This document shows, piece after piece, positions 3,178 through 52,593 of a stretch of DNA of 64,000 nucleotides. The translations under genes and the position numbers were made by a program. The stretch covers positions 2,540 to 66,539 of the forward strand of contig JADLCI010000001.1 of the NCBI GenBank assembly GCA_020847275.1. Reading direction: 5' to 3'. This stretch comes from Candidatus Nomurabacteria bacterium. Lineage in GTDB: Bacteria > Patescibacteriota > Minisyncoccia > Phycocordibacterales > JACOZG01. Within the stretch, counting starts at the first letter, position 1. Each line of letters starts with the position of its first letter. Under the pieces are notes generated by a model. It was given only the letters and a program-made list of their open reading frames with translations, was not told where the DNA came from and did not search any database.

Positions 3178-5574
3178 CTATAAAATAATCAACTTGCCAC
3201 CCAAGAACTCGATCCGCGTCCCCGCTCCAACCTCACCACTAATTATTCTATCCGCAACAGCCTGCTCAACCTTATCCTGAATAAAGCGGGCCAATGGCCG
3301 AGCACCAAAAACTCGATTGGTTCCGGCGTCGGCCACACGATTAATCAGATCATCATTGAGTTGCAGCTCGATGCCCTGAGTCCTCAATCGGGCAACTAAG
3401 CGATTAAGAAGTAGACGAGCAACCTGAAATAGTTCCGCCCCGACCAGTGGATGGAAGATCACAATCTCATCGAAACGGTTGAGCAACTCCGGCCGGAAAA
3501 GTGACCGTTTGATAAGGTGGTTCACCAACTCATCCCGCGCGGTGCTTGGGTCACGCCCCGCCTCTACCATCTCCCAGATCATCTCGGCGGCGGCATTAGA
3601 GGTCGCGATAAAGATGATATTACGCGTATTGACTCGACGACCAAATGCATCAGAGAAAAACCCTTCGTCCAGAATCTGAAGAAACAAGTTAAGCACCTGC
3701 TGACTGGTCTTCTCAAACTCATCCAAAAGTAGAACCCCGTAAGGGTTCTGCCGTAGAAGATTAGCGAGTATCCCCTGTTTATTTTCGGCAAAAGAGCCAA
3801 TCAGACGATTCAAGGCATCATCTGATTGATATTCCGACATATCTAGCCGCAAAAGCGCCTCCTCGCGCCCGAAAAGTGTCCGCGCTAACGCCTTTGCTGT
3901 TTCCGTCTTACCGACGCCAGTTGGCCCCAAAAAAAGAAAACTGCCGATCGGGCGCCCGCGGTTCGCCGTACCCGCACGACTCCGACGAAGCGCCTGACTA
4001 ATTGCTCGTAAAGCCACCTCCTGGCCGATCACTTGATGTTGTAAATTTTGTTCCAAACTCAATAAAGATTCCCGTTCTAAAACAGAAACCGAACCAGCGG
4101 GGATCTTCGTTTTCTGACTGACAAAGGCCAAGACCTCTTCTCGCCCGATAATCTTCTCCCCACTACTCACCGCCCAAGGCACTAACTCCACCAATAAATC
4201 AAGGGCTCGGTCACTGATTGAATCTGTCTGGAAATATCGTCCAGCACTTTCAACCAAAGAAACAAGGGATTGGTAGGTAAAAAAGATTCCCAGCTTCTTT
4301 TCAAAATTTACCGCCACTTCCTCGAGAAAAATGATTAAACGCGACTGGTCGATTTCTGTCGCACGAATAACCTCGAAACGACGGGCTAATTCGGGCACAC
4401 CAGCAATTGACTGTTGATAGGAATCCGTGTCGACAAGAGCAATAATCGGTAAAATTGCCGCCCCAAGATACGGATCGAGAAGCGAGGTTAATTCGCTGCC
4501 AAGTCTCCGCGCGCCAGCAAGCAAAACAGCGAGATCATCAATTACCAAAATCGTATTACCCGACTTGGCGGCCTCATTCATGATCTGCAAAACTGTCTGC
4601 TCAAAAGTGCCGCGCTCTCGATGGTCAGCAATCAGCAGGGCGGCGTGGAGAAGAACCGGGCGGCGGTGTTCTAGGGCCGGCACTACGAAACCACTCTTAA
4701 TTTCATTCGCCAATTGCCAAATTATATCCATCTTTGACTCCCCTGCGGGCCCAACAATAAGCGCATTTGATTCTTGGCTACGCAGGAGGACATTCTCCAA
4801 CTGTCGAACCTCGTCGCGACGCACCGTGGCGGTCTGCCGAAAGCCACTTGATTGTGGTGCCAGCAATAAATCTTCACTGTAACGATCGAGGACAAAGGTC
4901 TGTCCGAAAGACCAATCCTTAGCCAAACCAGGAATTCTTCCCAAACTCTCACGACTCCACCAGCGCTCGGCAAGAGCCTTGCGCTCAATCTCACTCACCA
5001 CCCAAGCAACCGCGCCAACCAATTCCGGCTGATTGATCTCGTGGCGGAAAAGGAATTTGGCAAAATCTTCATTGTTGGAATAAATCCAGTCCGCCAACTT
5101 GGCCAAGGTTAGCGGTTCAGCGCCCGCGAGAGAGAGGGTGGGCAGATTCTTTTTCTGTGGTCGTGTCTGAAGAAAAGATCGGATCTCCGTATCCATCACC
5201 CCAAGACGTCTTAAAACCAAATTTCCCGTCTTGGATAACATAAAAGCCGTCAGAACATCCTCATCTTTATTTCTCAATCGATACAAAATACGCCCAACCG
5301 TAAAGGTGAAGAGATCCTCACGCCGATAACGATTAGTAATGATGCTAGAAAAATAATAAGAACGGAAAAAAACCTCAAGGAGGTGAAGCATCAGAATTGC
5401 CGTCGCGAGAATAAGCACCAATCCCAACCATCGAGAAGTCTGATCGAGAGACAAGAGCAATGCGAGTGTCATCACCTCCACTACCCAACGAAGAAATCGT
5501 CGGTCGCGACGGGAAATCAGGTTCTCCAAAACAAGAACTGGGTAAAGTCGACTAGATTTTATTCTTTCAAACAT
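3178..5574 (-). CDS. Membrane-anchored Clp/Hsp100-family AAA+ ATPase with degenerate first nucleotide-binding domain
   Basis: 798 aa; two N-terminal TM helices. The D2 domain is intact ([15 protein letters not shown]...LLRLDMSEYQ, sensor-2 region). The D1 Walker A is replaced by GPAGESKM. Confidence 0.7.
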   Translation of the reverse strand: MFERIKSSRLYPVLVLENLISRRDRRFLRWVVEVMTLALLLSLDQTSRWLGLVLILATAILMLHLLEVFFRSYYFSSIITNRYRREDLFTFTVGRILYRLRNKDEDVLTAFMLSKTGNLVLRRLGVMDTEIRSFLQTRPQKKNLPTLSLAGAEPLTLAKLADWIYSNNEDFAKFLFRHEINQPELVGAVAWVVSEIERKALAERWWSRESLGRIPGLAKDWSFGQTFVLDRYSEDLLLAPQSSGFRQTATVRRDEVRQLENVLLRSQESNALIVGPAGESKMDIIWQLANEIKSGFVVPALEHRRPVLLHAALLIADHRERGTFEQTVLQIMNEAAKSGNTILVIDDLAVLLAGARRLGSELTSLLDPYLGAAILPIIALVDTDSYQQSIAGVPELARRFEVIRATEIDQSRLIIFLEEVAVNFEKKLGIFFTYQSLVSLVESAGRYFQTDSISDRALDLLVELVPWAVSSGEKIIGREEVLAFVSQKTKIPAGSVSVLERESLLSLEQNLQHQVIGQEVALRAISQALRRSRAGTANRGRPIGSFLFLGPTGVGKTETAKALARTLFGREEALLRLDMSEYQSDDALNRLIGSFAENKQGILANLLRQNPYGVLLLDEFEKTSQQVLNLFLQILDEGFFSDAFGRRVNTRNIIFIATSNAAAEMIWEMVEAGRDPSTARDELVNHLIKRSLFRPELLNRFDEIVIFHPLVGAELFQVARLLLNRLVARLRTQGIELQLNDDLINRVADAGTNRVFGARPLARFIQDKVEQAVADRIISGEVGAGTRIEFLGGKLIIL

Positions 5575-27159: not shown

Positions 27160-27534
27160 TTAGAAGCCCTGAGGTGGAGGAACTGTAGGAATCTGGGTTG
27201 GACGATTGGCCCCGCCGAAGTTAAACGTCCCACCAAGCACATTGACCAAACCCCAGACCGAGACCATCACGAAGAGAGCGATAACACCGTAGATCATTGT
27301 GGAACGGCCAGCCGCCTTTTTCTCATCGTCACCACCAGCGGTAACATACTGAAGAACACCCCAAAGGAAATACACGACCCCCAGACCAATTATCAGCGGG
27401 ATGATGTAGTTATTGATTAAGCGAATAATCGTAGCAAAACCACCTTCAAGACTAGTCACACTCTGAGCCAGAGCAAACACCGGAAGAGCAAGGGTTAGAC
27501 CAGAAACAGAAACTTGCTTGAAAAACTTGTTCAT
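27160..27534 (-). CDS. VirB2/TrbC-like pilin-family protein (paralog 4, with signal peptide)
   Basis: 124 aa; signal peptide ...ALA-QS, TM1, loop GGDDEKKAAGRS, TM2 MIYGVIALFVMVSVWGLVNVLGGTFN. Confidence 0.55.
   Translation of the reverse strand: MNKFFKQVSVSGLTLALPVFALAQSVTSLEGGFATIIRLINNYIIPLIIGLGVVYFLWGVLQYVTAGGDDEKKAAGRSTMIYGVIALFVMVSVWGLVNVLGGTFNFGGANRPTQIPTVPPPQGF
27221..27298. repeat. gene-conversion tract shared by pilin paralogs 3 and 4 (copy 1)
   Basis: 61 bp identical to 27604-27664 (TTAAACGTCCCACCAAGCACATTGACCAAACCCCAGACCGAGACCATCACGAAGAGAGCGA), with partial identity continuing. Confidence 0.8.
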
Positions 27535-27557
27535 TTATTTTTATTAAACTATTAATA

Positions 27558-27842
27558 CTATCTGTCGGAAAGCGACGGCACGGGGAGAGAATTATTGTCG
27601 AGATTAAACGTCCCACCAAGCACATTGACCAAACCCCAGACCGAGACCATCACGAAGAGAGCGACAATTCCATAGATCATCATCTTCCTCCCCTCTTCTC
27701 GGTCGTCATCACTACCCGATTGCCTAACATATTTTAGCACGCCCATCAAAAAGTACGCAACCGCAACCGCCAAGAACAAGTAGGAAAGCGGATTAAGGAC
27801 CTTCGTAATCAATGTATTCACCAAATAAGCGAAATCTTTCAT
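27558..27842 (-). CDS. VirB2/TrbC-like pilin-family protein (paralog 3)
   Basis: 94 aa; same two-helix topology; TM2 is identical to paralog 4 over about 26 aa. Confidence 0.55.
   Translation of the reverse strand: MKDFAYLVNTLITKVLNPLSYLFLAVAVAYFLMGVLKYVRQSGSDDDREEGRKMMIYGIVALFVMVSVWGLVNVLGGTFNLDNNSLPVPSLSDR
27604..27680. repeat. gene-conversion tract (copy 2)
   Basis: See 27221-27298. Confidence 0.8.
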
Positions 27843-27850
27843 AAATTATT

Positions 27851-28186
27851 TTATCGTCCGACCTCTAAACTAGTAATCGTATTCTCAATAACACTGGAAA
27901 TCACGAACGCCCCAAGCACAATTGCTGCGCCAATCACAACCGTTAGAAGAGCGTTCTTGGCCTTCTTCAGACCATCCTCACTGCCACGAGCAGAGACAAA
28001 CAGGAAGCCGACGTAAACCACGGCTAGGACCAAAATTGGCATCCCCACCTGGATAATAATCTCCAGGATCTTATTCACCAAATCACTCAAACTGTTAACG
28101 TTAATCGGGTTGCTTATTAGACCGCCGGATCCAGTATTCCCTGTTTGCTGCTGTGCGTGAGCAACGAGTAATTTCCAAGTAGACAT
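27851..28186 (-). CDS. VirB2/TrbC-like pilin-family protein (paralog 2)
   Basis: 111 aa; two TM helices separated by the loop ARGSEDGLKKAKN. Confidence 0.5.
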   Translation of the reverse strand: MSTWKLLVAHAQQQTGNTGSGGLISNPINVNSLSDLVNKILEIIIQVGMPILVLAVVYVGFLFVSARGSEDGLKKAKNALLTVVIGAAIVLGAFVISSVIENTITSLEVGR

Positions 28187-28204
28187 TAGTTTAATCCTAA
28201 CATT

Positions 28205-28609
28205 TTAATTACCAAGTGGCACCACTCGTTCGATACTACTACGAAATTCAGGCTTAATTAAAGATTTCACGATTGTGGTAACAATCAACCAGGCCCCAAT
28301 GACTAAAACGAGCCCAATGACCGCCGCTTCAATAATCTCCTTACCTTCAGTCCGTTTCCCTTCTTTACCTGGATTACTGGCCATAATAATACCAGCGTAA
28401 ACAATTGCGATGGTGGCCACCGGCACAGCCAATGTAAAAACGAAATACTTAATAATCTTGTCGAGAAGAATGAAGAAATCTGCCGCACCACAATCGTCAC
28501 CAGCACAAGTGGGAACCAGCGGCGCTTGAGCGTATGCAAGAGTCGCCACTCCCAAGAAGCCAACTAGACAAAGGGAAACGACAAGGACTTTAATTGCTGA
28601 TGTTCTCAT
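28205..28609 (-). CDS. VirB2/TrbC-like pilin-family protein (paralog 1, with signal peptide)
   Basis: 134 aa; signal peptide ...LAYA-QA, TM1, loop NPGKEGKRTEGKE, TM2. Confidence 0.55.
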   Translation of the reverse strand: MRTSAIKVLVVSLCLVGFLGVATLAYAQAPLVPTCAGDDCGAADFFILLDKIIKYFVFTLAVPVATIAIVYAGIIMASNPGKEGKRTEGKEIIEAAVIGLVLVIGAWLIVTTIVKSLIKPEFRSSIERVVPLGN

Positions 28610-40030: not shown

Positions 40031-41221
40031 TTAGGTGTTTTTGTAGTGTCGTAAAAAATCTAATTTATACTCCTCAAAGTTGTTGTCCAGAATTGACTGA
40101 CGAATTTTTTTAACTAAGTTGACCGAGAAATAAAGGTTGTGAATAGAGGCGAGTGTTGCCCCAAGCATTTCTCTAGCACGGAAGAGATGCGCAAGATAGG
40201 CCCTGGAATATTTTTTACAGGTATAACATAGACAGCCATCCTCAACGGGAGTAAGATCATCACGATATCTAGCATTGAGAATATTTAGACGGCCAACTCT
40301 CGTTTGTAATGTCCCGTTGCGCGCCATTCGTGTGGGTGCAACGCAGTCGAAAGTATCAGCGCCATTTTCGACACCGACAAAAAAATCTAGGGGCTCACCA
40401 ATGCCCAAGAGATGCCTCGGTTTCTCTTCGGGTAAAATATTATTGACCCAAACCAAAACCTCGTTGACCTCCTCTTTTGTATAAGAACCACCAATACCGA
40501 ACCCCTCGAACCCTAGTTCGCTGATTTTTCTGGCACTCTCCTCTCGCAAATCCTGGAAACGGCCGCCCTGTACAATTCCCCACAGACTTTGCTCGCCACT
40601 TTTGTCTAATTTCTGATGTTTTAGCAAACTACGTTCTGCCCAAGAGTGAGTCCGTGCTAGTGATTTGTCATGATATTCATGGTCGTGTAGAGGCGAGGTG
40701 CACTCATCGAAAGTAAAAATGATGTCTGCGCCCAACTGATATTGGATTTCCATCGAACTTTCTGGGGTAAATCGGTGTTCCGCACCATCTAGAGGTGAGC
40801 GGAAGTTTACTCCATCATCATCTACTCTTGCCGGTCGAGCAGAAGAATTCTCTATTTTCTTGTAATTTTCTACCTCATCACGATTTACAAATTTGGTGAG
40901 CGAGCTATCAAATCCAGCCCCAAGTGAGAATACCTGGAAACCACCAGAATCTGTAAAGGTCGGCCCGCTCCAATTCATAAATCTCCCTAGTCCGCCAGAT
41001 TTAGCAACTAAGTCTGGACCAGGCTCAAGAAAGAGATGGTAAGTATTGGCCAAAACCGCTTCCGCGCCAATGGAAGTAACCTGCTCTGGGGTCAAAGACT
41101 TTACCGTGGCCTTAGTGCCAACCACAATAAAAGCTGGGGTGTTAATCTCCCCATGCGGAGTAGAAATTGTCCCTGCGCGACCTAAACCTCGCGCTAATTT
41201 TTTCTCGATTTTAAATTTCAT
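40031..41221 (-). CDS. tgt: queuine tRNA-ribosyltransferase
   Basis: 396 aa; TIM barrel with GGFQVFSLG, the catalytic Asp regions and a Zn site CLCYTCKKYSRAYLAH. Confidence 0.9.
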   Translation of the reverse strand: MKFKIEKKLARGLGRAGTISTPHGEINTPAFIVVGTKATVKSLTPEQVTSIGAEAVLANTYHLFLEPGPDLVAKSGGLGRFMNWSGPTFTDSGGFQVFSLGAGFDSSLTKFVNRDEVENYKKIENSSARPARVDDDGVNFRSPLDGAEHRFTPESSMEIQYQLGADIIFTFDECTSPLHDHEYHDKSLARTHSWAERSLLKHQKLDKSGEQSLWGIVQGGRFQDLREESARKISELGFEGFGIGGSYTKEEVNEVLVWVNNILPEEKPRHLLGIGEPLDFFVGVENGADTFDCVAPTRMARNGTLQTRVGRLNILNARYRDDLTPVEDGCLCYTCKKYSRAYLAHLFRAREMLGATLASIHNLYFSVNLVKKIRQSILDNNFEEYKLDFLRHYKNT

Positions 41222-43206
41222 CAGTAAACTGGATTACAAGACTTACAGACACCAAGTTCTTCTAGCTTATCTAAGTAAAGGACGAGAGTATTCACAAATT
41301 CCGCATGACTCCAAACCAGCGGGGTTGCCGAGAGTGGTCCGCCAGTTTCCGGGTTTAATTGTTCAGACAGAATCCCCGCTTCACTTGCGTGTTTGGCAAC
41401 CCAGTCTAACGTGTCTTTCACGCTAGCCAAATCTTCTTCGTTCTTTGCCTGTCTAATCTCATACTGGGCCAACCAGAGTGTCGTGATAAACCAGGGATTA
41501 CCAGGCACCGCCGCACCGGTGTGTCCATAACCGTCATTCTGGTAACGAGCAAAGCCCCCAACCGAGGTATGCACCGCGAGCGTATCGCGGGCAACCACAC
41601 TAGCCCGTACCAGTCGCGGATCACTCGGCGGTAAAATACCGAAAAATGATATTCCATGAACACTTGAGAGATCAATGATTTCGTCACGAGCGGCACCACC
41701 AGCCGCGTCAATCAGCTGACCAAAAAAGAATCCGGTCTTTTCGTCATATAAATCCCGTAGAATTGCGTCCCTAACCTCAGAGGCGGCTTGTTGGTAGAGA
41801 ACTGAACCCTCTTCCTTCCCGAGCAATTTTGCAAAGCGTGACGCGGCCTCCAGTGCGCCAAAGACGGCGCTGGCGGTAAAGACACTCACACCAAACTTCT
41901 CCTCCCAAAGATTATAAGATGGTCGCGGTAATCCCGTCTTGAGATCGCGATAAATCACCATAAAATCCGCGGTGGCCTTAATCAATGAATTATAAATTTC
42001 TTCGATAAACTCGATATCCTTAGAAATCTGGTAATACTGCCAAAGAGAAGAAAGCACAAGGGCCGTTTCATCCTCCTGAATTGGCAACTCTGGCCGCCCA
42101 TCACGCATCCACGGATGCCAAGAACTACCGAGAGATTTGTCTGGACTATACTTATGCATCAAGTATTCGCCTCCATCCAGAATGTCGTTACAAAACATGA
42201 AAAACCGCCGGGCAACATTAAGATCGCCAGCGCGCGCCAGTGCCAGCGCAGCGAAAGCAGCGTCACGCGGCCAAACATAGTTGTAGGTGTCTCTCCCCCC
42301 CTGTTGGAAAATTTGAAAATCCGTCGAAGCGACAATGCCGCCAGCCGAATCGGCGTGAGCACGAATTATGAAAAGTGACTTTTGAAATAGAGAAATCACA
42401 TCCTTCGATAAACCGTGGAAACTCCAGTTTTGTCTGCTAACCCAGGCCCGCCAGAAGTCACGCGTTGTCTCAACCAAGTGACTAGGGCTGTTCTGAACTA
42501 CATAGTAGTTGAGACGCAGAACTTCGGTGATTGAGCGCCCCACAGTGAGCCAATAATAAAGGGTTTTTTCCTCCCCCGATTGATACTTCGCCGACAAACC
42601 AATGACCGAATCAGCTCGTCCATGTTCAATCGGATTCTGAGACAAGATCCCGTCAAAGGCATCAGTGTGCGTCCCCTCTTTACCTTCTGTCTCAAAAATG
42701 CCGGTGGAATAATCATCAAAATCTTTACCTTCTAACCTGGCATTGACCAAGAAAGCGCGCTGATTGCGATAATGAATAACGGCATGGTGATTGGGGTCAA
42801 AATAGGCCGTGTGAGCCGCATGTGACTCATATAATTCAAACTGTTGTGCAAAAAATATCTTTATATCTCGTTCATGTTGCGCCATGTTCTTAACGATAAG
42901 TTTCCTGACAAAAATATTCTTCTCATTGTAAACCAGATCATTAAACATAATCGAAACCTCAAACCTTTCATTAACGGCTGAAATATTGCTCGCAAAAGTG
43001 CCATCCTCATAATCAATCTTTATCTTCCAGGTATCATCACTGGTCCAGGATAATCTACCGTCAACAAAGACCCCAACACGGTGAACATAGTGACCACCGA
43101 GTTGATTCTCCAGACCAACGTGAGGAAAGTAAAAATCCCGAACCTGCCCAGCGGTATCTAGGTTGACAAGAATCTGGCCATTCCCCAAAACTAACGCTCT
43201 AGACAT
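41221..43206 (-). CDS. glycoside hydrolase family 15 (glucoamylase/glucodextranase-like)
   Basis: 661 aa; (alpha/alpha)6 barrel motifs YNYVWPRDAAF, LWEE and PLVWSHAEF. Confidence 0.8.
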   Translation of the reverse strand: MSRALVLGNGQILVNLDTAGQVRDFYFPHVGLENQLGGHYVHRVGVFVDGRLSWTSDDTWKIKIDYEDGTFASNISAVNERFEVSIMFNDLVYNEKNIFVRKLIVKNMAQHERDIKIFFAQQFELYESHAAHTAYFDPNHHAVIHYRNQRAFLVNARLEGKDFDDYSTGIFETEGKEGTHTDAFDGILSQNPIEHGRADSVIGLSAKYQSGEEKTLYYWLTVGRSITEVLRLNYYVVQNSPSHLVETTRDFWRAWVSRQNWSFHGLSKDVISLFQKSLFIIRAHADSAGGIVASTDFQIFQQGGRDTYNYVWPRDAAFAALALARAGDLNVARRFFMFCNDILDGGEYLMHKYSPDKSLGSSWHPWMRDGRPELPIQEDETALVLSSLWQYYQISKDIEFIEEIYNSLIKATADFMVIYRDLKTGLPRPSYNLWEEKFGVSVFTASAVFGALEAASRFAKLLGKEEGSVLYQQAASEVRDAILRDLYDEKTGFFFGQLIDAAGGAARDEIIDLSSVHGISFFGILPPSDPRLVRASVVARDTLAVHTSVGGFARYQNDGYGHTGAAVPGNPWFITTLWLAQYEIRQAKNEEDLASVKDTLDWVAKHASEAGILSEQLNPETGGPLSATPLVWSHAEFVNTLVLYLDKLEELGVCKSCNPVY

Positions 43207-44404
43207 TTACTTTTTCTCTGGTTCTTAATTCTAAATCGGTTACAACATTCATAAAGGAAATAAACGCGTCATATGGTGATTCATACGGTGAGAAATATTT
43301 ATGAACATCTCCATCGTTCCACCACTTAGTACACATGTAGTATAAATGATCGGATGTTAGCAATCTACGCCAACTTTCGATTAGGGCTTCATTTTTAGTG
43401 CGCAAAATCGGCTTCTCTAAAGCGTAAACCTTCCGTGCCGCATCTTGCTGCATCGGATTCCCAAGCCACGCAGAAAGATCGCGCTCAGTGTCGGCCCAAG
43501 AATAGAAATGGGGCGCATCAATTTCCCCCTTCGACTCAAATCGACGAAGCGCCTCAGAAACAGTAACAAAACTATTATCTCTATGTTGCAAAATTTCCGT
43601 CGGAAGTGAGCGCAAGAAATCAAAAATACCCGTATCCGCCCATTGGTGTTCACCAAAAGTTTCATAATCCATAAACAAATTTACTACTTCGCCGGAACCA
43701 TTTAAGGCTGAAACCCACGAAGCAAACTTAGGAGCGGACAGTGGCCACTCACTCCAATCACGAGAAGAAAAACGGAAAGCGATATCGTCGGATAGTTTGT
43801 AATTTTTTAATAGCAACTTCAAACCGCTAGTCCCCGACGGGGAATAGACGAAATTGGGGCTACGCCAACCAAGAATGTGGTCAGCGCCTTCGGCCAAAAT
43901 ACCACGAAAACCGAGTTCAGAAATTTCTCGCGCTAAATCGTTGTTATAAACTAGTTCCGTGTGACGAAAAACCTCTGGCTCGTAATTAAACAAATCAATA
44001 ATCTTCCGCCGATGTAGGCGTACTTGCTTGCGGAATTCTGTCGGCGAATAAAGATAGGCAAGCGAATGATGATAGGTTTCATTCAAAAGTTCCACCCTCC
44101 CTGTCTTCACCAGGTTCTGAAACGACACAAGAGCATCGGGCGCGTACTCTTCCATTTGCTCTAAGGCCACCCCAGAAATAGAAAAGGAAACTTTAAACTC
44201 TGGATGTCGTTCTAACAATTCTCCAATTACTTGATTGGTCGGTAAATAGCATTTCTCGGCGACCTTACGCATAATCTTCCGATTATTCGTATCGGCCTCA
44301 CTAGAGTCATTGAAATAATGTTCATCGTGCCCAATGTCAAACACCCGATACTTCTTGATTCGGCGTGGTTGGTGAACCTGAAAATAGAAACAAACTGCGG
44401 GCAT
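43199..44404 (-). CDS. glycoside hydrolase family 57 (alpha-amylase/branching-enzyme type)
   Basis: 401 aa; N-terminal FYFQVHQPRR (the GH57 HQP motif) and a following (beta/alpha)7 region. Confidence 0.7.
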   Translation of the reverse strand: MPAVCFYFQVHQPRRIKKYRVFDIGHDEHYFNDSSEADTNNRKIMRKVAEKCYLPTNQVIGELLERHPEFKVSFSISGVALEQMEEYAPDALVSFQNLVKTGRVELLNETYHHSLAYLYSPTEFRKQVRLHRRKIIDLFNYEPEVFRHTELVYNNDLAREISELGFRGILAEGADHILGWRSPNFVYSPSGTSGLKLLLKNYKLSDDIAFRFSSRDWSEWPLSAPKFASWVSALNGSGEVVNLFMDYETFGEHQWADTGIFDFLRSLPTEILQHRDNSFVTVSEALRRFESKGEIDAPHFYSWADTERDLSAWLGNPMQQDAARKVYALEKPILRTKNEALIESWRRLLTSDHLYYMCTKWWNDGDVHKYFSPYESPYDAFISFMNVVTDLELRTREKVNV

Positions 44405-44415
44405 AGACCCTCATT

Positions 44416-45594
44416 TTAACATAACTCTCGGTAAATCCTGATACATTTTTCGGCGGCCGCATCCCAAGTCACCCGCCTGACTTCCTCTTGCCCACTCCTA
44501 GCTAATGTTTGCTGTAAACTACCATGCTCAAGGACAGACAGAATCTGATTGGTCATCTCATCAATATCCCAAAAATCAACCTTGAGTGCATGCCTAAGTA
44601 CCTCAGAGACACCAGATTGCCTAGAGACAAGCACCGGCGTCCCTGCGGCAAGAGATTCGAGGGGTGTAATTCCAAATGGTTCAGAAACTGAAGGTAAAAT
44701 ATATAAATCAGCCGCCTGATAGAGACGCGTCAACTCTTCACCCCGAAGGAAACCGGGGAAAAAGATGCGGTCCGAGAGACCAAGTTGGGCGGTTAAATCC
44801 ATCATCTTCGGCGCCATATCACCAGCTCCAGCCATTACAAAATAAGTATTGGGTGCAAACTTTAGTACTCTACGGGCAACAAGGATGAAGTAATCAGGGC
44901 CTTTTTGCAAAGTAATCCGACCGACGAAAAGTACAATTTTGTTCCCGCGAGCACGGAGTGCAGTAAGCGCCTCTGGTAAATTGATATTACTTTCAACACG
45001 AACACCGTTGTGAACCACCTCAATCTTCTCAGGAGCGATACCATAATGTCGCACGATCAACTGCTTCGTCCAATCAGATACGGCGATAACTTTTACCGCC
45101 TGCTCCATGCCCATTTTTTCAATCTGGTAAACATCCTGGTTGATACTATTACCACCACCGCGGTCAAACTCGGTAGCGTGCACGTGGACAACGAGCGGTT
45201 TACCGCTGACCTTTCTCGCCGCCAACCCAGCCGGGAAAGAAAGCCAATCGTGAGCATGAATGATGTCGAAATTTTCTCTCCTGGCAAGTCGCTCTGCCCG
45301 ACGAGCATAGAGTTTCACCTCGTCCATCAAGCTCAGACCACTCGCATCATGGCTTTCCTCATCGCCTTTTGCATAAGCGGAAAACATCACCCGCTCTAGT
45401 CCCCGCGCTGGAGTTGGTCCAGCAAAAATTAAACGAAATTTACTAGAATCAATCGGCAGTTTTTGGGGTAACACAAAAATTATCTCGACTGATTTTTCAG
45501 TAAGAGCGTCGACAAGACCTTCACAAGCAGTACCAAGACCACCACTATTGTGGGGCGGAAGCTCCCACCCGAACATCAAGACCCGGGGTGACAT
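44416..45594 (-). CDS. glycogen/alpha-glucan synthase-like glycosyltransferase (GT-B, GT4/GT5)
   Basis: 392 aa; N-terminal FGWELPPHNSGGLGT, a C-terminal GT-B domain with an E..E motif (PSVSEPFGITPLESLAAGTPV). Confidence 0.7.
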   Translation of the reverse strand: MSPRVLMFGWELPPHNSGGLGTACEGLVDALTEKSVEIIFVLPQKLPIDSSKFRLIFAGPTPARGLERVMFSAYAKGDEESHDASGLSLMDEVKLYARRAERLARRENFDIIHAHDWLSFPAGLAARKVSGKPLVVHVHATEFDRGGGNSINQDVYQIEKMGMEQAVKVIAVSDWTKQLIVRHYGIAPEKIEVVHNGVRVESNINLPEALTALRARGNKIVLFVGRITLQKGPDYFILVARRVLKFAPNTYFVMAGAGDMAPKMMDLTAQLGLSDRIFFPGFLRGEELTRLYQAADLYILPSVSEPFGITPLESLAAGTPVLVSRQSGVSEVLRHALKVDFWDIDEMTNQILSVLEHGSLQQTLARSGQEEVRRVTWDAAAEKCIRIYRELC

Positions 45595-48276: not shown

Positions 48277-48540
48277 TTAAGCGATTAAGACATCCAGTTT
48301 ATCACCCCTATCCAATTTATTCCACTTCTCATGCCCACATTTCTCACAATGATGTAACACATCGTAACCACCGGAGACTGCCCGGTAATCCACGGGGGCC
48401 ATCATCCCGCCACACCGAGCCAACCGATCGCCAGGATGGTTATCCACATGGCGACTCCACAAACAATCTGGGCAATGGTTGGTATAACCATTGCCACGGA
48501 CAGCTAGTCCGCAATGACCACAGACAAAATCCTCAATTTT
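48277..48540 (-). CDS. double zinc-ribbon protein (start codon uncertain; probably non-canonical)
   Basis: The ORF track calls 61 aa from a TTG start. The in-frame upstream sequence, with no ATG/GTG/TTG, encodes ...EDFVCGHCGLAVRGNGYTNHCPDC..., adding two more CxxC pairs to ARCGG...HHCEKCGH. The stop-free frame runs to 48570. Confidence 0.45.
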   Translation of the reverse strand, partial: KIEDFVCGHCGLAVRGNGYTNHCPDCLWSRHVDNHPGDRLARCGGMMAPVDYRAVSGGYDVLHHCEKCGHEKWNKLDRGDKLDVLIA

Positions 48541-48833: not shown

Positions 48834-48973
48834 AATTGTTTAGCTATTTACTTAATAACATTTAATAACCAGACTATCATAGCATGAAAGTACCCCGCTA
48901 GCGACTACCACGGTAGAGACAAACAATGATTAAACCCTTTCGGTCTAATCATTGTCGTTATATAATATGCAAC

Positions 48974-50374
48974 ATGAAATCACTTCTACTTCTAACTGTT
49001 CTCGTTTTTGGATTTTTTATCCCCCTTGCAAATGCCTCCGTCGTTCCCACATTTTCCGTTTCCAGTAACGGTTACAATGCGCTAGCCACCGTCCACGGCG
49101 ACCCAAACACCGCCGTAGAACTTCACTACGGCAATTCTGCCGAAAACATAAACACTATCGGCACCACAGACTCAAACGGTAATTTTTCTACCCCACTAAG
49201 TGTCTCAAGCTACCAATTCGGTTGTGGAAAAACGGCCTATGTGAGAGTTGGCACTTATCAATCTGCCACTATCCCTTGGTCACTCAATAATAGCTCCTGC
49301 CAAAGCCTCGCCCTTAGTCAAACTAATGTTTCTCTCAATCCCGGACAAAGCACCATCATTACCGCCACGATTAGCGGTGGTCTGTATGTCTCCAGTAACT
49401 CCAACCCGAGTGTGGCCGGCGCTAGCGTGAGTGGCAACCAGATTACCATCACCGCCGCCAGCTACGGCACAAGCAATCTTACCGTCTGCACCACCAATGA
49501 AATGTGCGGAGTTATAAACATCACCACCAATGCTCCTGGCGCCAACGCCGGTAGCAACCTCTCCTTTAGCCAAACTAATGTTGAGGTCAATGTGGGACAG
49601 AGCAGTGTTGTCACCATTTATGGTTCGGGCAACAATTACACTATTCCAACCAACTCCAACCCCGCCACCGTCTCTACCTCTCTAAGTGGGAATGTCCTCA
49701 CTCTCACGGGCCTTGCTTTCGGAGGCTCTAATGTCACGATCTGTCAGAATAATAATCAGTGTGGGGTGGTCTATGTCATTGTGGTTAATAATCCAGCCTT
49801 GACCGGTACTTATACCAACAACGCCGAGCCCACAATTACCTCTCTCAATATTAGCTCCGACAATGTTGGCGGAGAATTCATTAAGGCTGGCAATCGCCTG
49901 ACCATTACCTTCAATACCAATAAACCAATAAGTAACCCGCTGATGCTCGTTGGTCTTACTCGAGTTAACCTAACAGGAAGCGGCTCTGGTCCTTACCTCG
50001 GCACATACTCCGTCACAAGCAATAATCCACTGCCTCTCATTATCACTTTCAGCGATTCCTCAGGTCGAAGCGGTCGAGCAACCCTCACTTTGGGAGATTG
50101 GTCAGCCCCATCAAATATCTCGAACAGCCCGATCACCACACCAACTCCCGGGCCCCGCTACACCTTCTCAACCTTCTTAGGCGTTGGTGATAACGGCAAA
50201 ACGGTGACTGAATTACAAAAACGCCTGACCGAACTAGGTTTCTACCACGGTCCCACCAACGGCAACTTTGGACCCCTAACTGAAGCGGGGGTAACGGCGT
50301 TACAGAGGGCCAACGGGATAAAATCCGTTGGGTATGTCGGCCCAGCCACACGGGCCATCTTGAACCAGTATTGA
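48974..50374 (+). CDS. secreted protein with Ig-like repeats and a C-terminal peptidoglycan-binding (PG_binding_1) domain
   Basis: Start trimmed to MKSLLLLTVLVF (signal peptide; -10 TATAAT just upstream). The C-terminus KTVTELQKRLTELGFYHGPTNGNFGPLTEAGVTALQRANG matches the PGBD helical-repeat motif. Confidence 0.6.
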   Translation: MKSLLLLTVLVFGFFIPLANASVVPTFSVSSNGYNALATVHGDPNTAVELHYGNSAENINTIGTTDSNGNFSTPLSVSSYQFGCGKTAYVRVGTYQSATIPWSLNNSSCQSLALSQTNVSLNPGQSTIITATISGGLYVSSNSNPSVAGASVSGNQITITAASYGTSNLTVCTTNEMCGVINITTNAPGANAGSNLSFSQTNVEVNVGQSSVVTIYGSGNNYTIPTNSNPATVSTSLSGNVLTLTGLAFGGSNVTICQNNNQCGVVYVIVVNNPALTGTYTNNAEPTITSLNISSDNVGGEFIKAGNRLTITFNTNKPISNPLMLVGLTRVNLTGSGSGPYLGTYSVTSNNPLPLIITFSDSSGRSGRATLTLGDWSAPSNISNSPITTPTPGPRYTFSTFLGVGDNGKTVTELQKRLTELGFYHGPTNGNFGPLTEAGVTALQRANGIKSVGYVGPATRAILNQY

Positions 50375-50423
50375 CCACTGGTGTATAATGAGAGCAGATT
50401 ATAAGCATTAATAATTTTTCTCT

Positions 50424-50549
50424 ATGAATCCAGAAGAATGTGGCTGTGGTGAACACAGTACCTGCAAAATGGGCGATGCTACTTGCACCGCCTGCAACAA
50501 GAAGTGCCCAGCAGCTCCATCTGCTCCAGAAGGTGGGATGGGAATGTAA
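50424..50549 (+). CDS. 41-aa cysteine-rich peptide (8 Cys; metallothionein-like or RiPP-precursor-like), unannotated in the ORF track
   Basis: MNPEECGCGEHSTCKMGDATCTACNKKCPAAPSAPEGGMGM. An extended -10 TGTATAAT lies at 50381-50388 and an intrinsic terminator at 50578-50609. No obvious SD. Confidence 0.35.
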   Translation: MNPEECGCGEHSTCKMGDATCTACNKKCPAAPSAPEGGMGM

Positions 50550-50577
50550 GAAGACCCGGCAATCTTGTTCTCCCAAA

Positions 50578-50609
50578 ACAAACCGCCCATTGGAGCGGTT
50601 TGTTTTTTG
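50578..50609 (+). terminator. intrinsic terminator
   Basis: ACAAACCGC-CCATTGGA-GCGGTTTGT followed by TTTTTTG. Confidence 0.7.
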
Positions 50610-50689
50610 TTGGCGAGACCATGGAATTGATTACATCCTTGCTTATGGAAATTGAATTATGGGTTGGAAGAGTATAAACTTTAAATAAC

Positions 50690-51718
50690 ATGAAAAAGAT
50701 AACGAAACTAGTATTAACTGGATTACTTGTCACACTAGTCATTCCTCAAATCGCACTAGCCGCTTGGTGGAACCCAATTAGTTGGTTAAATAACTGGAAC
50801 CTTTTTAAACCAGCAACTCCTGAGGAAACCAAAACCCAAGTCCTAGAAAATCGAATAAAGGAGCTTGAGAAGAAATTGGAAAAAAGTGTAGATATTTCAA
50901 ATAATCCTAGCACCACAACCCTAGGAACTAAAAAAGAAGCGCTTAAACAAACGGTGAGGACAAACGATGTTACGCCGATAGAGTCACCAACACTTACCAA
51001 GCCTAAGCCAATAGTTACCCAACCCACCATAGTGACACCGCCCCTGGTGAAATCAATCCAGCCAGCACAAGTAGTTGATATTTATCAAGCCAAAGATAAT
51101 CTGATGTCAAAGCTAAATAATTTAAAGTCTCAAGTAGAAAACATTATATCTGATCGAGGGTATACTCAACCCGATAAATTAAGCGGCCGCGACTATGTCG
51201 AGGCTACAAACTTAACTCAAATCGTGCAGAAGCTAGGATCTAGTTTATATGATTTGAAATCAACCAACCCATCTCAAAAAAGCATTGATTATCACACGAG
51301 CCAATACAGCAGTTTAGAAACTTCTTTCAATAGCCTAGGCTTCAACGAGTCTGACTGGTCTCCACGAAAAACAGAAAAACTAGACAAGGGAGAAAACCCC
51401 CTTCTAGTGCAAATGAGAATGGTGCAGTCTGAGATTGATAAATATAAAAGATTCCTTTTAGAAATTAACGCTGGCCATTACAGTTGTGTCCGCAACGACA
51501 CTAATACTTGTCCAGATGTTTACACACCACAAAACCCAATCCCGCAGGAAATCATCGATATAATATTTCGTGCGTCATTTTCAGCCACCGATGGTGGAGA
51601 TGCTAAGATTCTCACAAAAGGCACTTCTCTAGCTAGGTACGTCGAACAACAAATTGAGTTTATACTTTTCGACTTAGAAGCCAAACTTAGGCAATTAAGA
51701 TTAACCGTTCAATACTGA
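50690..51718 (+). CDS. hypothetical secreted protein (AT-rich, lineage-specific)
   Basis: 342 aa; signal peptide (IALA-AWW), coiled-coil and Thr/Pro-rich segments, 2 Cys near the C-terminus. Confidence 0.5.
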   Translation: MKKITKLVLTGLLVTLVIPQIALAAWWNPISWLNNWNLFKPATPEETKTQVLENRIKELEKKLEKSVDISNNPSTTTLGTKKEALKQTVRTNDVTPIESPTLTKPKPIVTQPTIVTPPLVKSIQPAQVVDIYQAKDNLMSKLNNLKSQVENIISDRGYTQPDKLSGRDYVEATNLTQIVQKLGSSLYDLKSTNPSQKSIDYHTSQYSSLETSFNSLGFNESDWSPRKTEKLDKGENPLLVQMRMVQSEIDKYKRFLLEINAGHYSCVRNDTNTCPDVYTPQNPIPQEIIDIIFRASFSATDGGDAKILTKGTSLARYVEQQIEFILFDLEAKLRQLRLTVQY

Positions 51719-51748: not shown

Positions 51749-52121
51749 TGGTGGAGATGGCGGGAATCGAACCCGCGTGCAAAAGGTTGACCTAAATTGT
51801 TCTACATACTTATCTCACTTTAAATTTTCGCCAACGCGACTCGAAATGAGCCAAACATCGCGCCAGTTAGCATCTTAGTTTTGAATTCGTGCCGATGCGA
51901 TCATGAATTCTAGCTCGCGAGTATAACACCCCTAGCCAGTCAGCAAGCGAGACCGGTAGAGACGCCGAGTTAAGCTAAAGCGAAACTCGGAACAGCGAAG
52001 TACGGTGAAACCGTACCGCCCTGCTTAGCCGTAGTTTTGGCAAGTAGATTTTACCTTTTGATTAACGAGAGTAAGGCGCTCTCGGTATGCCCAAAATGAG
52101 GACCGTCCAATTGTCTAGGCC
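51749..52121 (-). ncRNA. ssrA: tmRNA (SsrA)
   Basis: The 5' end is GGGGAUGAUCGGCCUAGACAAUUGGACGG and the 3' end is GCGGGUUCGAUUCCCGCCAUCUCCACCA (tRNA-Ala-like acceptor with a G3:U70 pair and encoded CCA). An internal tag-like reading frame ends ...AVPSFALA-UAA. It begins 14 nt downstream of the smpB stop. Confidence 0.8.
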
Positions 52122-52134
52122 GATCATCCCCGTT

Positions 52135-52593
52135 TTAAAAGCGACTTTTCAAAGTCCGATCAAGGTCTCGTTTATTCTCCCGTTTTTTAATCTTCTCACG
52201 CTTATCATACTTTTTCTTCCCCCGTGCAAGCGCAAGACCAAGCTTCAAACGACCGCCTTTATTATATACTGATAATGGAATGATTGTCAATCCCCGCTCA
52301 CCAATTCTGGCCGCCAAATCGCTAATTTCTTTTTTCGTCAGCAGAAGTTTCAGGGCTCGCCCTTTCTCGTAGTCTGGTGGCAAATTCGCCGCCTGATAAG
52401 GACTAATTTCTGCACCCACCAGGAAGGCCTCCCCTCCGCGAACCAAGACTCGTCCACCCTCTAGCTTACCTCGTCCCAGTTTGAGTGCCTTTACCTCAAA
52501 TCCGGATAATTCTAAGCCAGCCTCTAGTTTTTCTAAGAGTTCGTAGTCGTAGTGCGCTTTCGGGTTATTCACAAGATTAGACATTGTCCCCAT
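52135..52593 (-). CDS. smpB: SsrA-binding protein
   Basis: 152 aa from the ATG at 52593 (MGTMSNLVNNPKAHYDYELLEK...GFEVKALKLGRGKLEGG...ISPY...KLLLTKKEI...GLTIIPLSVY). The ORF-track N-terminal extension to 53085 is not SmpB-like. Confidence 0.85.
   Translation of the reverse strand: MGTMSNLVNNPKAHYDYELLEKLEAGLELSGFEVKALKLGRGKLEGGRVLVRGGEAFLVGAEISPYQAANLPPDYEKGRALKLLLTKKEISDLAARIGERGLTIIPLSVYNKGGRLKLGLALARGKKKYDKREKIKKRENKRDLDRTLKSRF

Follow-up and report, generated by a model that had tools for sequence, protein, structure and literature searches.

A conserved six-cysteine mini-protein gene overlooked in groundwater Patescibacteria, with a putative metal-thiolate product

RESULTS

A short cysteine-rich gene lies upstream of convergent ssrA and smpB genes

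The 64-kb window, i.e., the whole stretch of DNA analyzed here, stems from a 'Candidatus Nomurabacteria' MAG. Behind a gene for a 482-aa PG_binding_1 protein, whose stop codon occupies positions 50372 to 50374, we located a small open reading frame (ORF) with the following features around it:

50360..50365, plus strand: −35 hexamer TTGAAC, overlapping the final codons of the 482-aa PG_binding_1 gene located upstream (promoter scan)
50384..50389, plus strand: −10 hexamer TATAAT with GGTG just before it, homologous to the family motif GGT(R)-TAnnAT
50397..50423, plus strand: predicted 5′ UTR of ~27 nt (upstream alignment; transcription start predicted)
50424..50549, plus strand: coding sequence of the 41-aa six-cysteine mini-protein MNPEECGCGEHSTCKMGDATCTACNKKCPAAPSAPEGGMGM, stop codon TAA (translation and homologues)
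50575..50611, plus strand: predicted intrinsic terminator, AAAACAAACCGC / loop CCATTGGA / GCGGTTTGTTTT, then TTGTT (RNAfold)
51749..52131, minus strand: tmRNA (ssrA), convergent with the peptide gene (Rfam, 123.9 bits, and ARAGORN)
52135..52584, minus strand: smpB, 149 aa, MCC6290516, immediately upstream of ssrA (Pfam SmpB, 9e-44)

MCC6290516 is an exact match to the NCBI protein named SsrA-binding protein SmpB. Translation of positions 50424 to 50549 on the plus strand gave exactly the peptide MNPEECGCGEHSTCKMGDATCTACNKKCPAAPSAPEGGMGM that had been described in an earlier sequence-only reading of this DNA. That reading had counted eight cysteines, whereas the translation contains six, at positions 6, 8, 14, 21, 24, and 28; the CGCG and C-x2-C spacings that it had named were both present (C6-G-C8-G and C21 to C24). 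Residues 6 to 29 form the core, which is followed by a tail rich in Ala, Pro, Gly, and Met. Cysteine makes up 6 of the 41 residues and 26% of a 23-residue core; there is one His, and Phe, Tyr, and Trp are absent. With its low mass, high cysteine content, C-x-C and C-x2-C motifs, and lack of aromatic residues, the peptide shows the traits by which metallothioneins are operationally recognized at the sequence level. Cysteine richness alone is not distinctive, as the window has two spurious ORFs of 57 aa with the same number of cysteines, and the decisive evidence for the reality of the ORF is its conservation.

Genes below ~50 codons are routinely missed by gene callers. The neighboring NCBI proteins carry the numbers MCC6290513, 515, 516, 517, 518, and 520; as this numbering leaves no number free for ORF 50424-50549, the ORF must have been missed by the annotation. 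In agreement with its description as unannotated, an exact-sequence look-up of the peptide returned no record in a collection of 15 billion proteins.

The gene has a predicted promoter, leader, and terminator of its own

The promoter scan identified the arrangement TTGAAC-18 nt-TATAAT, which is sigma-70-like and matches the consensus at 10 of 12 positions; seven promoter-like sites were found in the region versus 1.3 expected. In the upstream alignment, TTGAAC of the window aligns with a TTTACA −35 sequence conserved in the homologous loci described below. The end of the −10 hexamer lies 34 nt from the ATG, and in most of the family promoters scoring at least 9/12 (25 of 50 loci) the −10 hexamer sits 24 to 36 nt from the ATG. 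A second promoter-like site, ATGAGA-16-AATAAT (50388-50415), would result in a leaderless start and was rejected because the family −10 hexamer is consistently located 24 to 36 nt before the ATG. The −10 hexamer had been proposed to be of the extended type, but the TG abuts TATAAT directly instead of forming TGnTATAAT ('TG_before_second: no' in the scanner output).

The predicted leader opens with the conserved ATTA box of the family at the predicted transcription start, about positions 50396 to 50398, and is A+U-rich and unstructured. As stated in the sequence-only reading, it is short and lacks a Shine-Dalgarno sequence. The leaders of the family are about 25 nt long with 73% A+T. The start region has a folding energy of −1.6 kcal/mol in the window and a mean of −3.1 kcal/mol in the family, compared to −7.0 kcal/mol for random 40-mers from the same loci, and it is unstructured in 95% of the family loci. 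Leaderless genes and genes without a Shine-Dalgarno sequence are common in this genome, and the window contains a gene for an S1 protein. Translation would probably be initiated independently of a Shine-Dalgarno sequence on the open, AU-rich leader, possibly with the aid of ribosomal protein S1.

Two potential regulatory elements in the leaders were considered and rejected. A conserved hairpin or palindromic operator at the ATTA box was not supported, as a palindrome occurs in some loci only, and a 7-1-7 motif resembling a Fur/Zur box (TGATTATTACTATCA), found in leaders of the clade with CRPNASKIEE tails, is of a kind that AT-rich sequence yields by chance. The palindromes themselves are ATTAGCGCTAAT in locus L003 and TAATTAG-N5-CTAATTA in locus L012.

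Downstream of the ORF, RNAfold predicted a hairpin at positions 50575 to 50606 followed by a T-run to about position 50611, with −27.6 kcal/mol over 81 nt and a z score of −3.0, in line with the intrinsic terminator that had been claimed. A separate hairpin scan reported a 12-bp stem with an 8-nt loop, followed by TTGTTGGC. The hairpin was missed by a simple terminator scanner, probably due to its 8-nt loop and a bulge. Based on the 5′ A-run and the 3′ T-run, the terminator is potentially bidirectional. Of 47 family loci, 30 have an equivalent hairpin with a T-run. Searches of the locus against Rfam, run with gathering as well as E-value thresholds, gave no family, with sub-threshold noise on the terminator only. 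Most family loci share one layout, namely a promoter, a ~25-nt AU-rich leader without a Shine-Dalgarno sequence, the ORF, and a terminator. By these predictions, the gene is laid out as a small transcription unit of ~215 nt of its own, comprising a putative sigma-70 promoter, the leader, 41 codons, and a putative intrinsic terminator.

The mini-protein belongs to a conserved family in Patescibacteria

Searching 1.84e9 proteins with phmmer revealed six small homologues with E values from 4e-11 to 5e-4. The top match, P0001 (1658 aa, 19 repeats), was dismissed as a false positive driven by its repeats, and P0007 was not accepted as an informative domain fusion, as its C-terminus is that of a P0008-like zinc-ribbon protein and the sequence looks chimeric. 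Scans at the DNA level detected 17 loci among MAGs of Patescibacteria and another 39 among metagenomes of groundwater. All of these ~56 homologous loci belong to Patescibacteria (Parcubacteria, Kaiserbacteria, Paceibacterota) from groundwater, and all 56 contain an intact ORF of 31 to 43 aa. Among the scanned GTDB species representatives, no more than 17 carry the family, and about ten members occur among ~15 billion predicted proteins, the sole named one being a hypothetical protein.

No match was obtained in Pfam for the window peptide and all 44 family members, or in NCBIfam for the window peptide, both at E ≤ 10. Sequence profile searches of the PDB gave no significant relative, a word-indexed search of proteins with this one peptide as query no match, and a search of viral contigs no homologue. 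Literature searches on cysteine-rich small proteins or metallothioneins of CPR bacteria yielded nothing relevant. These searches show a family that, as judged from sequence, is restricted to the Parcubacteria/Paceibacteria lineages of the Patescibacteria and new to Pfam and NCBIfam.

The members share the core C-x-C-G-x-H-S-T-C-K-P-G-D-x2-C-x-G-C-G-K-x-C-P. Across 42 distinct 23-residue cores, the six cysteines, G9, T13, K15, D18, and K26 are invariant. In a variant found at five loci (L047, L050, L053, L055, L056), G-E-G-G replaces G-D, so that the core reads G-E-G-G-T-C, and the CRPNASKIEE clade has C-R where the others have C-P. The tails differ by lineage: a large clade ends in NRSKIEE, the subgroup of the window has an Ala/Pro-rich tail, and the 31-aa members have none. 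A tandem variant with two modules occurs naturally (P0002, L007, L029).

For the 42 unique cores, dN/dS was about 0.10, with dS saturated in most pairs. The invariant Cys, Gly, Lys, Asp, and Thr residues are each encoded by several codons, cysteine by both TGT and TGC; the frame is thus kept with an excess of synonymous changes, as expected under purifying selection. The sequence-only reading had proposed an unannotated gene for a peptide, equipped with a promoter and a terminator of its own, to be abandoned if the frame was not conserved in related genomes or if the region was transcribed only as 3′ UTR of the preceding gene. The homologue search that it had suggested showed the contrary, with ~56 homologous loci sharing the frame, the layout, and purifying selection, and the region is more than a 3′ UTR. 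We therefore regard it as strongly supported by the sequence comparison that positions 50424 to 50549 represent a genuine protein-coding gene overlooked by annotation.

tmRNA and smpB are the recurrent neighbors

In 28 of 57 loci, a convergent tmRNA gene followed by smpB is located 50 nt to 4.5 kb downstream of the ORF. The remaining neighbors differ among the loci, the tag peptides encoded by the tmRNAs vary widely, and the CRPNASKIEE clade as a whole lacks the tmRNA linkage. A conserved gene for a maturase, a transporter, or a regulator was not found next to the ORF across the loci, nor was a metal transporter or metalloregulator found nearby in any locus. From 23.9 to 59.6 kb of the window, every gene with a Pfam annotation is a housekeeping gene. 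A genome scan for syntenic genomes with the upstream 482-aa neighbor found no relatives. The adjacency to ssrA-smpB is a conserved but unexplained genomic context, and a functional link is a candidate only. A glutaredoxin-like gene is located 2.2 kb upstream of the ORF in the window and is not conserved in other loci.

DISCUSSION

The product is best read as a metal-thiolate mini-protein

Our preferred explanation is that the locus carries a missed gene of a Patescibacteria family whose product would be a cytoplasmic metal-thiolate mini-protein with a metallothionein-like function in the buffering or sequestration of Zn or Cu, a proposal in which our confidence is evenly balanced. As for the type of protein, the best reading of the sequence is a zinc-knuckle-like or metallothionein-like product, and the family probably binds metal ions. 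This is suggested by the six invariant cysteines within 23 residues, the C-x-C-G and C-x2-C-G knuckle motifs, and an aromatic-free composition rich in Lys, Gly, Ser, and Thr. An AF2 model of the core (pLDDT 72 to 82) contained no regular secondary structure, in keeping with the folds of metal knuckles or metallothioneins. Profile matches in the PDB were insignificant, the best being the RPB12 zinc ribbon (E = 0.08) and a ferredoxin C-x2-C-x3-C-P motif. Since module duplication is typical of metallothioneins, the tandem two-module variant also argues for metal binding. The metallothionein-like candidate put forward in the sequence-only reading thus remains the best, although inferred, reading; a place in a known metallothionein family was not found for any of the 44 members.

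In the proposed mechanism, the product would stay in the cytoplasm, because no signal or leader peptide is present, and the ~24-residue module would fold around metal ions via its six invariant cysteines. Two pseudo-symmetric half-sites, C-x-C-G-x4-C and C-x2-C-G-x2-C, would flank the K-P-G-D turn and resemble two zinc knuckles with one extra thiolate each. Together with the nearly invariant His11 and Asp18, the cysteines may provide six to eight candidate ligands, which would be enough either to build a Zn(Cys)4 site alongside another site or to form a small bridged cluster, e.g., M2Cys6 or Cu4S6. The C-terminal tail would be dispensable and lineage-variable; as it differs between lineages (NRSKIEE versus Ala/Pro-rich), the cysteine core is presumably the functional unit. 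The most likely role would be that of a small, abundantly expressed metalloprotein buffering or sequestering Zn or Cu in the style of metallothioneins. The missing adjacent metalloregulator has a precedent in Pseudomonas, where metallothionein genes likewise lack an adjacent metal-responsive regulator (PMC7387436).

Alternative functions

The non-cysteine residues of the family are more conserved than those of typical metallothioneins, which fits a specific structural or partner-binding role equally well. That no metal transporter or metalloregulator was found near any of the loci also speaks against the preferred explanation. The product might be a zinc-ribbon-like structural micro-protein in which the metal stabilizes a fold that docks onto a partner such as SmpB-tmRNA, the ribosome, or RNA polymerase, an alternative that we consider rather unlikely. 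It is favored by the strong conservation of the non-ligand positions G9, H11, S12, T13, K15, P16, G17, D18, G23, G25, and K26 at a dN/dS of 0.1, by the conserved NRSKIEE tail of the large clade, by RPB12 as the top, albeit insignificant, PDB match, and by the presence of tmRNA and smpB downstream of about half of the loci (28 of 57) while other neighbors vary. However, the tail is swapped for an unrelated Ala/Pro-rich sequence in the window's subgroup and missing in the 31-aa members, and a tandem of two modules is hard to reconcile with docking through one surface. As the genes converge and are not co-transcribed, the linkage may reflect an inherited gene order that a shared bidirectional terminator holds together, and it is absent from the CRPNASKIEE-type clade. 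That the family was present in no more than 17 scanned GTDB species representatives argues against a core translation factor.

A redox function appears unlikely. The mini-protein might be a rubredoxin-like Fe(Cys)4 protein, an Fe-S carrier, or a Zn-thiolate switch or thiol buffer in anaerobic fermenters without glutathione. The segment D18-x2-C21-x2-C24-x3-C28-P29 mimics the ferredoxin motif C-x2-C-x2-C-x3-C-P, but Asp18 occupies the position of the first cysteine, and the weak PDB match on a 2x[4Fe-4S] subunit had E values of 0.11 to 2.5. Moreover, the spacing varies: the G-E-G-G-T-C variant shifts the distance between the acidic residue and the cysteine, and C-R replaces C-P in the CRPNASKIEE clade. 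C-x2-C-G knuckles are also the motif of rubredoxins, and in Hsp33 a CxC...CxxC zinc center works as a redox switch; a module of ~24 residues is, however, far smaller than natural ferredoxins or rubredoxins, and no Pfam match to Fe-S or rubredoxin families was found. The glutaredoxin-like gene of the window would suit a redox role but is not kept at other loci.

A metal-buffer role does not account for the recurrent tmRNA-smpB neighborhood. A 24-residue Cys6 metal-cluster micro-protein of a new class specific for Patescibacteria might be kept beside ssrA-smpB across deep divergence by acting with this rescue system or the ribosome, and might, for instance, modulate trans-translation in response to Zn or redox state instead of being a generic metal buffer; we judge this to be improbable.

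The sequence-only reading had also named a RiPP or bacteriocin-type precursor and suggested a search for nearby maturation enzymes. A small peptide rich in Cys, Ser, Thr, and Gly with its own promoter and terminator and six cysteines in ~40 residues is reminiscent of SCIFF, and the C-terminal NRSKIEE of many members could in principle be a follower peptide, with SCIFF/ranthipeptide-, lanthipeptide-, or azoline-type maturation by enzymes encoded elsewhere in the genome. SCIFF precursors likewise have six cysteines in ~40 to 45 residues and a tiny gene that is often missed; they are also known for an N-terminal leader of ~20 residues and a radical-SAM maturase that is always adjacent. The 41-aa peptide lacks both, and neither the SCIFF model nor any other NCBIfam or Pfam precursor family matched. 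In the family, the cysteine core starts at residues 4 to 7 (residue 6 in the window), leaving no N-terminal leader and no double-glycine signal. None of the 57 loci contributed to a recurrent radical-SAM, YcaO, LanM/BC, MNIO, protease, or ABC-transporter neighbor, no long ORF of the 64-kb window contains a CxxxCxxC motif, and the annotated surroundings are of a housekeeping nature. The whole core is also conserved far above what is usual for RiPP core peptides. As a leader peptide and a conserved maturase, transporter, or regulator neighbor are missing, we consider a RiPP precursor very improbable.

That the ORF encodes no functional protein, being either a chance ORF within the 3′ UTR of the preceding gene or a cysteine-rich attenuator leader peptide whose translation only controls the terminator, is already refuted by the sequence conservation and close to negligible: read-through transcripts probably cover the ORF, as no terminator lies between the upstream stop codon (50374) and the ORF, a terminator follows it as in classical attenuators, and its minus strand gave a sub-threshold Rfam Leu_leader hit (30.4 bits versus a gathering score of 50), but the frame is conserved with a dN/dS of 0.1 and invariant non-cysteine residues at ~56 loci with differing flanking genes, 25 nt separate the stop codon from the hairpin and no alternative antiterminator is evident, no Rfam family reached its threshold, and the downstream gene is not conserved, with the convergent tmRNA gene next in many loci leaving nothing to attenuate.

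Comparison with known cysteine-rich proteins

Bacterial metallothioneins such as SmtA/BmtA, including those of Pseudomonas, and mycobacterial MymT are likewise small, cysteine-rich, and poor in aromatic residues, are cytoplasmic, as the new family would be, and contain C-x-C and C-x2-C motifs with His among the candidate ligands; SmtA has a zinc-finger-like sub-structure. In contrast, no sequence relationship was detectable, and Metallothio_Pro and all other Pfam metallothionein models gave no match. Bacterial metallothioneins have nine cysteines plus one or two His in ~55 to 80 residues and bind three to four metal ions, whereas the new family has six cysteines in a ~24-residue module; the window peptide with six Cys and one His does not provide the Cys9His1-2 set of the Zn3-4 cluster of BmtA/SmtA. 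The new family also differs by much more conserved non-cysteine positions, its restriction to Patescibacteria, and the putative nature of metal binding. Fungal Cu-metallothioneins (Neurospora/Agaricus) and the N-terminus of the mammalian metallothionein beta-domain have the C-x-C-x5-C opening in common with the family, as well as an acidic MNPDEC/MDPNC-like N-terminus and a similar size (25 aa, 7 Cys). Beyond the third cysteine they continue differently (C-x-C-x3-C-x-C compared to x6-C-x2-C-x3-C in the family), and the resemblance is almost certainly convergent.

Zinc-ribbon and zinc-knuckle mini-proteins (RPB12/RpoP; small archaeal and bacterial zinc-finger micro-proteins) share with the family two Gly-ended cysteine knuckles and, between them, a short hairpin with a G-D turn, which is putative in the family. 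In the insignificant RPB12 alignment (E = 0.08), dCGehSTCKpGD.etCtgCg is paired with DCGQENTLKSGDvIQCRECG, the shared pattern being xCG..T.K.GD..C..CG. Gal4-type Zn2Cys6 domains, with two three-Cys halves and a Pro-containing six-residue linker, are arranged similarly, and the zinc center of Hsp33, built from C-x-C plus C-x2-C, is a precedent. Both are leads only, as their spacings differ, sequence similarity is absent, and their contexts (DNA binding and chaperone function, respectively) are different.

Patescibacteria (CPR) have very small genomes with a wealth of genes whose function is unknown. No new principle is claimed here, and we infer the function from sequence; what was recovered is a strongly conserved micro-protein family that is probably, by prediction, highly expressed. 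Provided that it binds metal, the module would rank with the smallest Cys6 metal-binding domains in nature and would be the first CPR-specific candidate for a protein of the metallothionein-like or zinc-knuckle type, with a bearing on Zn/Cu handling or redox sensing by symbiotic, metabolically minimal groundwater cells. The tight, unexplained linkage to tmRNA and smpB offers a concrete, testable hypothesis, and the ~25-residue module is small enough for chemical synthesis.

A six-cysteine gene in the window

The six-Cys gene is a 41-codon ORF lying in a 315-nt gap between genes for a PG_binding_1 protein and a hypothetical protein. Its surroundings are as follows.

48926-50374: gene for the PG_binding_1 protein, 482 aa, upstream neighbour
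50424-50549, + strand: six-Cys ORF, encoding MNPEECGCGEHSTCKMGDATCTACNKKCPAAPSAPEGGMGM
50690-51718: gene for a 342-aa hypothetical protein, MCC6290515 (IT398_00340), downstream neighbour
51749-52131, - strand: tmRNA (ssrA), 1.2 kb from the six-Cys gene
52135-52584, - strand: smpB

The peptide MNPEECGCGEHSTCKMGDATCTACNKKCPAAPSAPEGGMGM written out in an earlier reading made from the sequence alone (the sequence-only reading) is the exact translation of this ORF on the plus strand, and has six cysteines, at positions 6, 8, 14, 21, 24 and 28, instead of the eight counted there. By exact-sequence look-ups the window belongs to a 66.6-kb contig of a 'Candidatus Nomurabacteria bacterium' MAG. The description of the gene as unannotated is supported: NCBI proteins near the ORF (SWIB, MCC6290513; SmpB, 516; a 79-aa membrane protein, 517, IT398_00355; IF3, 518; L20, 520) are numbered consecutively with no slot free for a 41-aa ORF, and an exact-sequence look-up in a 15-billion-protein collection did not return the window peptide, though its neighbours are present. 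Public records thus carry no annotation of the six-Cys gene. Its motif is single-copy in the 64-kb window. Cysteine-richness by itself is within chance, and because two spurious 57-aa ORFs of the window equally contain six cysteines, the case for the gene depends on conservation.

Conservation of the six-Cys family

A word-indexed protein search with the window peptide returned nothing; phmmer, run exhaustively against 1.84 billion representatives, gave six small homologues of 39-115 aa (E = 4e-11 to 5e-4). One further phmmer match was a repeat protein and was rejected as a false positive. Back-translated pattern scans identified 17 loci in GTDB genomes, all of them Patescibacteria MAGs (Parcubacteria, Kaiserbacteria and Paceibacterota, some labelled Saccharibacteria), and 39 more in groundwater and aquifer metagenomes, including Rifle-type and Hainich contigs; viral contigs contained no homologue. 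Each locus has an intact ORF of 31-43 aa with the core C-x-C-G-x-H-[ST]-T-C-K-P-G-D-x-x-C-x-G-C-G-K-x-C-[PR]. Across 42 distinct cores all six cysteines, G9, T13, K15, D18 and K26 (window peptide numbering) are invariant, and the codons at these residues differ, with TGT and TGC at every cysteine and four glycine codons at G9. The pairwise dN/dS of these cores is ~0.10, dS being saturated in two-thirds of the pairs. The frame is thus conserved in related genomes, as the sequence-only reading would require. The nearest relative of the window peptide is locus L018 (MNPEECDCGEHTTCKVGDETCSACSKKCPASPPAEM, 76% identity). Only ~10 family members are present as predicted proteins, the sole named one as 'hypothetical protein', and no member matches a Pfam or NCBIfam model. 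We conclude that the six-Cys gene is real and unannotated and belongs to an uncharacterised, Patescibacteria-specific micro-protein family, a new sequence family, probably of the known general kind of small Cys-rich metalloproteins.

The subgroups differ in their tails, which are Ala/Pro/Gly-rich with Met often last in the window's subgroup, NRSKIEE(E) in one large clade and C-R-P-N-A-S-K-I-E-E in another. One five-locus variant (L047, L050, L053, L055, L056) has a G-E-G-G insertion, and one lineage (predicted protein P0002, loci L007 and L029) contains two complete modules in tandem. Taken with the interchangeable tails, this tandem variant suggests that the Cys module stands on its own as a unit and that its capacity could be multiplied, as in metallothioneins. 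In the Ala/Pro-tail subgroup the C-termini end in Met (GGMGM, AEM, ATM, GQM and GEM; window 50538-50546 and loci L018, L021, L006 and L013), and the window peptide itself contains M-x-M, with a further Met at position 16. Met-rich motifs serve as Cu(I) ligands in other proteins, and by this analogy the Met residues of the window's subgroup are a possible hint towards copper. The predicted protein P0007 combines the first 26 residues of the family with the C-terminal 36 residues of P0008, an unrelated 81-aa zinc-ribbon-like protein, joined at the common CAGCGKNFC; it probably arose by recombination or as a chimera of assembly.

Expression signals

The promoter scan identified TTGAAC-18-TATAAT at 50360-50389, matching at 10/12 positions, and seven promoter-like sites in the six-Cys region versus 1.3 expected. 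The promoter had been classed as extended -10; since the TG abuts the TATAAT hexamer, it does not have the canonical TGn form. Apart from this over-reading and the cysteine count, the original observation was essentially right. The window's TTGAAC/GGTG-TATAAT can be aligned with the family's upstream pattern, TTTACA(G) followed after ~16-18 nt by GGT(R)-TAnnAT, then by an ATTA box at the predicted transcription start and A+U-rich sequence onward to the ATG. A promoter with at least 9/12 matches is present at 25 of 50 distinct loci, in most of which 24-36 nt separate the end of the -10 from the ATG.

The ATTA(G/A)C-like box (window 50397-50402 and aligned family positions) is kept although synonymous sites are saturated. 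It lies within a palindrome at some loci (L003, ATTAGCGCTAAT; L012, TAATTAG-N5-CTAATTA), and in the CRPNASKIEE clade this site shows the Fur/Zur-box-like TGATTATTACTATCA. The box may serve as an operator or in initiation, or may just be AT-rich sequence. The -35/-10 spacer of the window also has an inverted repeat, ACCAGT-N7-ACTGGT (50364-50382), across the PG_binding_1 stop codon; reading through the upstream sequences of homologous loci showed no equivalent.

As for the terminator, described as clean, the plus-strand hairpin held up: at 50575-50606 a GC-cored hairpin of 12-14 bp precedes a T-run and folds well (-27.6 kcal/mol for 81 nt, z = -3.0). A simple terminator scanner did not pick up this hairpin, and Rfam showed no RNA family in this region. 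A hairpin with T-run occurs within ~100 nt of the stop codon at 30 of 47 loci. These signals would delimit a monocistronic transcript of ~215 nt; because no terminator separates the PG_binding_1 gene from the six-Cys gene, read-through from the former is possible.

Leaders in the family have an A+T content of 73%, and their genomes a G+C content of ~51%. The 40 nt at the start codon fold at -3.1 kcal/mol, versus -7.0 for random 40-mers from the same loci, and the start region is less structured than its own locus's average in 95% of loci. The missing Shine-Dalgarno sequence of the six-Cys gene is normal here, because most long genes of the window equally lack one and the window encodes an S1 protein. 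In many window genes a TATAAT-like box instead lies just 5-10 nt ahead of the ATG (for example those beginning at 5574, 7201, 7711, 15519, 20339, 21945, 33765, 34378, 44404, 45594, 55723, 57060 and 59593), and GGAG-type Shine-Dalgarno sequences are limited to a few (12395, 24714, 37026). This pattern suggests that leaderless mRNAs are widespread in this Nomurabacteria genome.

Linkage to tmRNA and smpB

An all-against-all comparison of flanking ORFs from 18 loci revealed no recurrent protein partner; flanking genes encode a membrane protein, threonine synthase, FtsH, a patatin-like protein, EF-Tu, Pol IV and others, and by Pfam annotation the window genes at ~23.9-59.6 kb have only housekeeping functions. 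No metalloregulator adjoins the six-Cys gene, and the same holds for Pseudomonas metallothioneins (PMC7387436). The sole recurrent neighbour is an RNA gene, an opposite-strand, convergent tmRNA downstream, found in 28 of 57 loci, i.e. the window and 27 others (50 nt to 4.5 kb away in the latter).

tmRNA-linked loci other than the window
L001-L005, L008-L010, L016, L019-L028
L032, L033, L035, L042, L046, L050, L053, L055

Wherever the adjacent ORF was examined, smpB came next, and at several loci the six-Cys gene and ssrA have one common back-to-back terminator. In the window, the 342-aa hypothetical gene is inserted between the two. Because tag peptides differ widely between linked loci, the adjacency has outlasted considerable divergence; it is absent in the CRPNASKIEE clade. 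It may reflect either function or inherited gene order, and the ssrA-smpB linkage, if functional, would make a find of moderate interest more interesting. At the metagenomic locus L048 alone, the six-Cys gene is preceded at ~450 nt by an opposite-strand FMN riboswitch (89 bits, 2396-2557, - strand).

Possible nature of the six-Cys protein

The window peptide has no signal peptide, leader or transmembrane segment, for which reason we infer a cytoplasmic product. Its six invariant cysteines, all within 23 residues, are arranged in two similar halves, C-x-C-G-x4-C and C-x2-C-G-x2-C, with a K-P-G-D turn in between and a Gly after each knuckle. This arrangement reads as a zinc-knuckle signature, and the Cys/Lys/Gly/Ser/Thr/Asp/Glu composition without aromatics appears metallothionein-like, making metal binding plausible. 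Our preferred reading is a small cytosolic metal-thiolate protein, which would buffer or sequester Zn or Cu. A structural zinc-finger adaptor, maybe tied to the translation or rescue machinery, is the foremost alternative; PDB-sequence profile searches matched the RPB12 zinc ribbon (DCGQENTLKSGDvIQCRECG) insignificantly (E = 0.08). A redox or Fe-binding mini-protein ranks behind it. The core can be read as ferredoxin-like D-x2-C-x2-C-x3-C-P, and the same searches gave an insignificant match to ferredoxin C-x2-C-x3-C-P, which like that to RPB12 is nonetheless suggestive; this reading is weakened by the G-E-G-G variant, where the spacing shifts, and by a clade with C-R for C-P. A RiPP precursor, as considered in the sequence-only reading, is unlikely, as there is no leader and no conserved adjacent maturase or transporter, and no long ORF of the 64-kb window has a radical-SAM-type CxxxCxxC motif. 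A non-functional ORF or attenuator leader peptide is ruled out by the conservation data.

In function, the metal-thiolate protein favoured here may resemble metallothioneins or zinc knuckles, yet it matches no described family. Membership tests for BmtA/SmtA, SCIFF and ferredoxins were all negative, and the peptide agrees with metallothioneins only in the operational features of size, Cys content, motifs and absence of aromatics. To our knowledge, SmtA (Zn) and MymT (Cu) are the only bacterial metallothioneins with studied function. We take as leads only the resemblances of the opening to the C-x-C-x5-C N-terminus of fungal and mammalian metallothioneins, and of the module to the Zn2Cys6 cluster of Gal4 and the zinc centre of Hsp33.

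Other features of the window

A 61-aa ORF at 48277-48462 (- strand), whose exact sequence is absent from the protein collection, aligns with the 90-position RNHCP domain at positions 30-89 alone; probably a non-canonical codon further upstream is its true start, or else the gene has been truncated. Three tandem paralogous genes at 27160-28609 (- strand) encode T4SS_pilin/TrbC-like small proteins of 124, 111 and 134 aa and adjoin a solute-binding protein gene. A glycogen/starch-type cluster at 41221-45594 (- strand), comprises GH15 glucoamylase-like, GH57 and GT4/GT5 glycosyltransferase genes; after it come genes whose secreted products have CAP and PKD domains.
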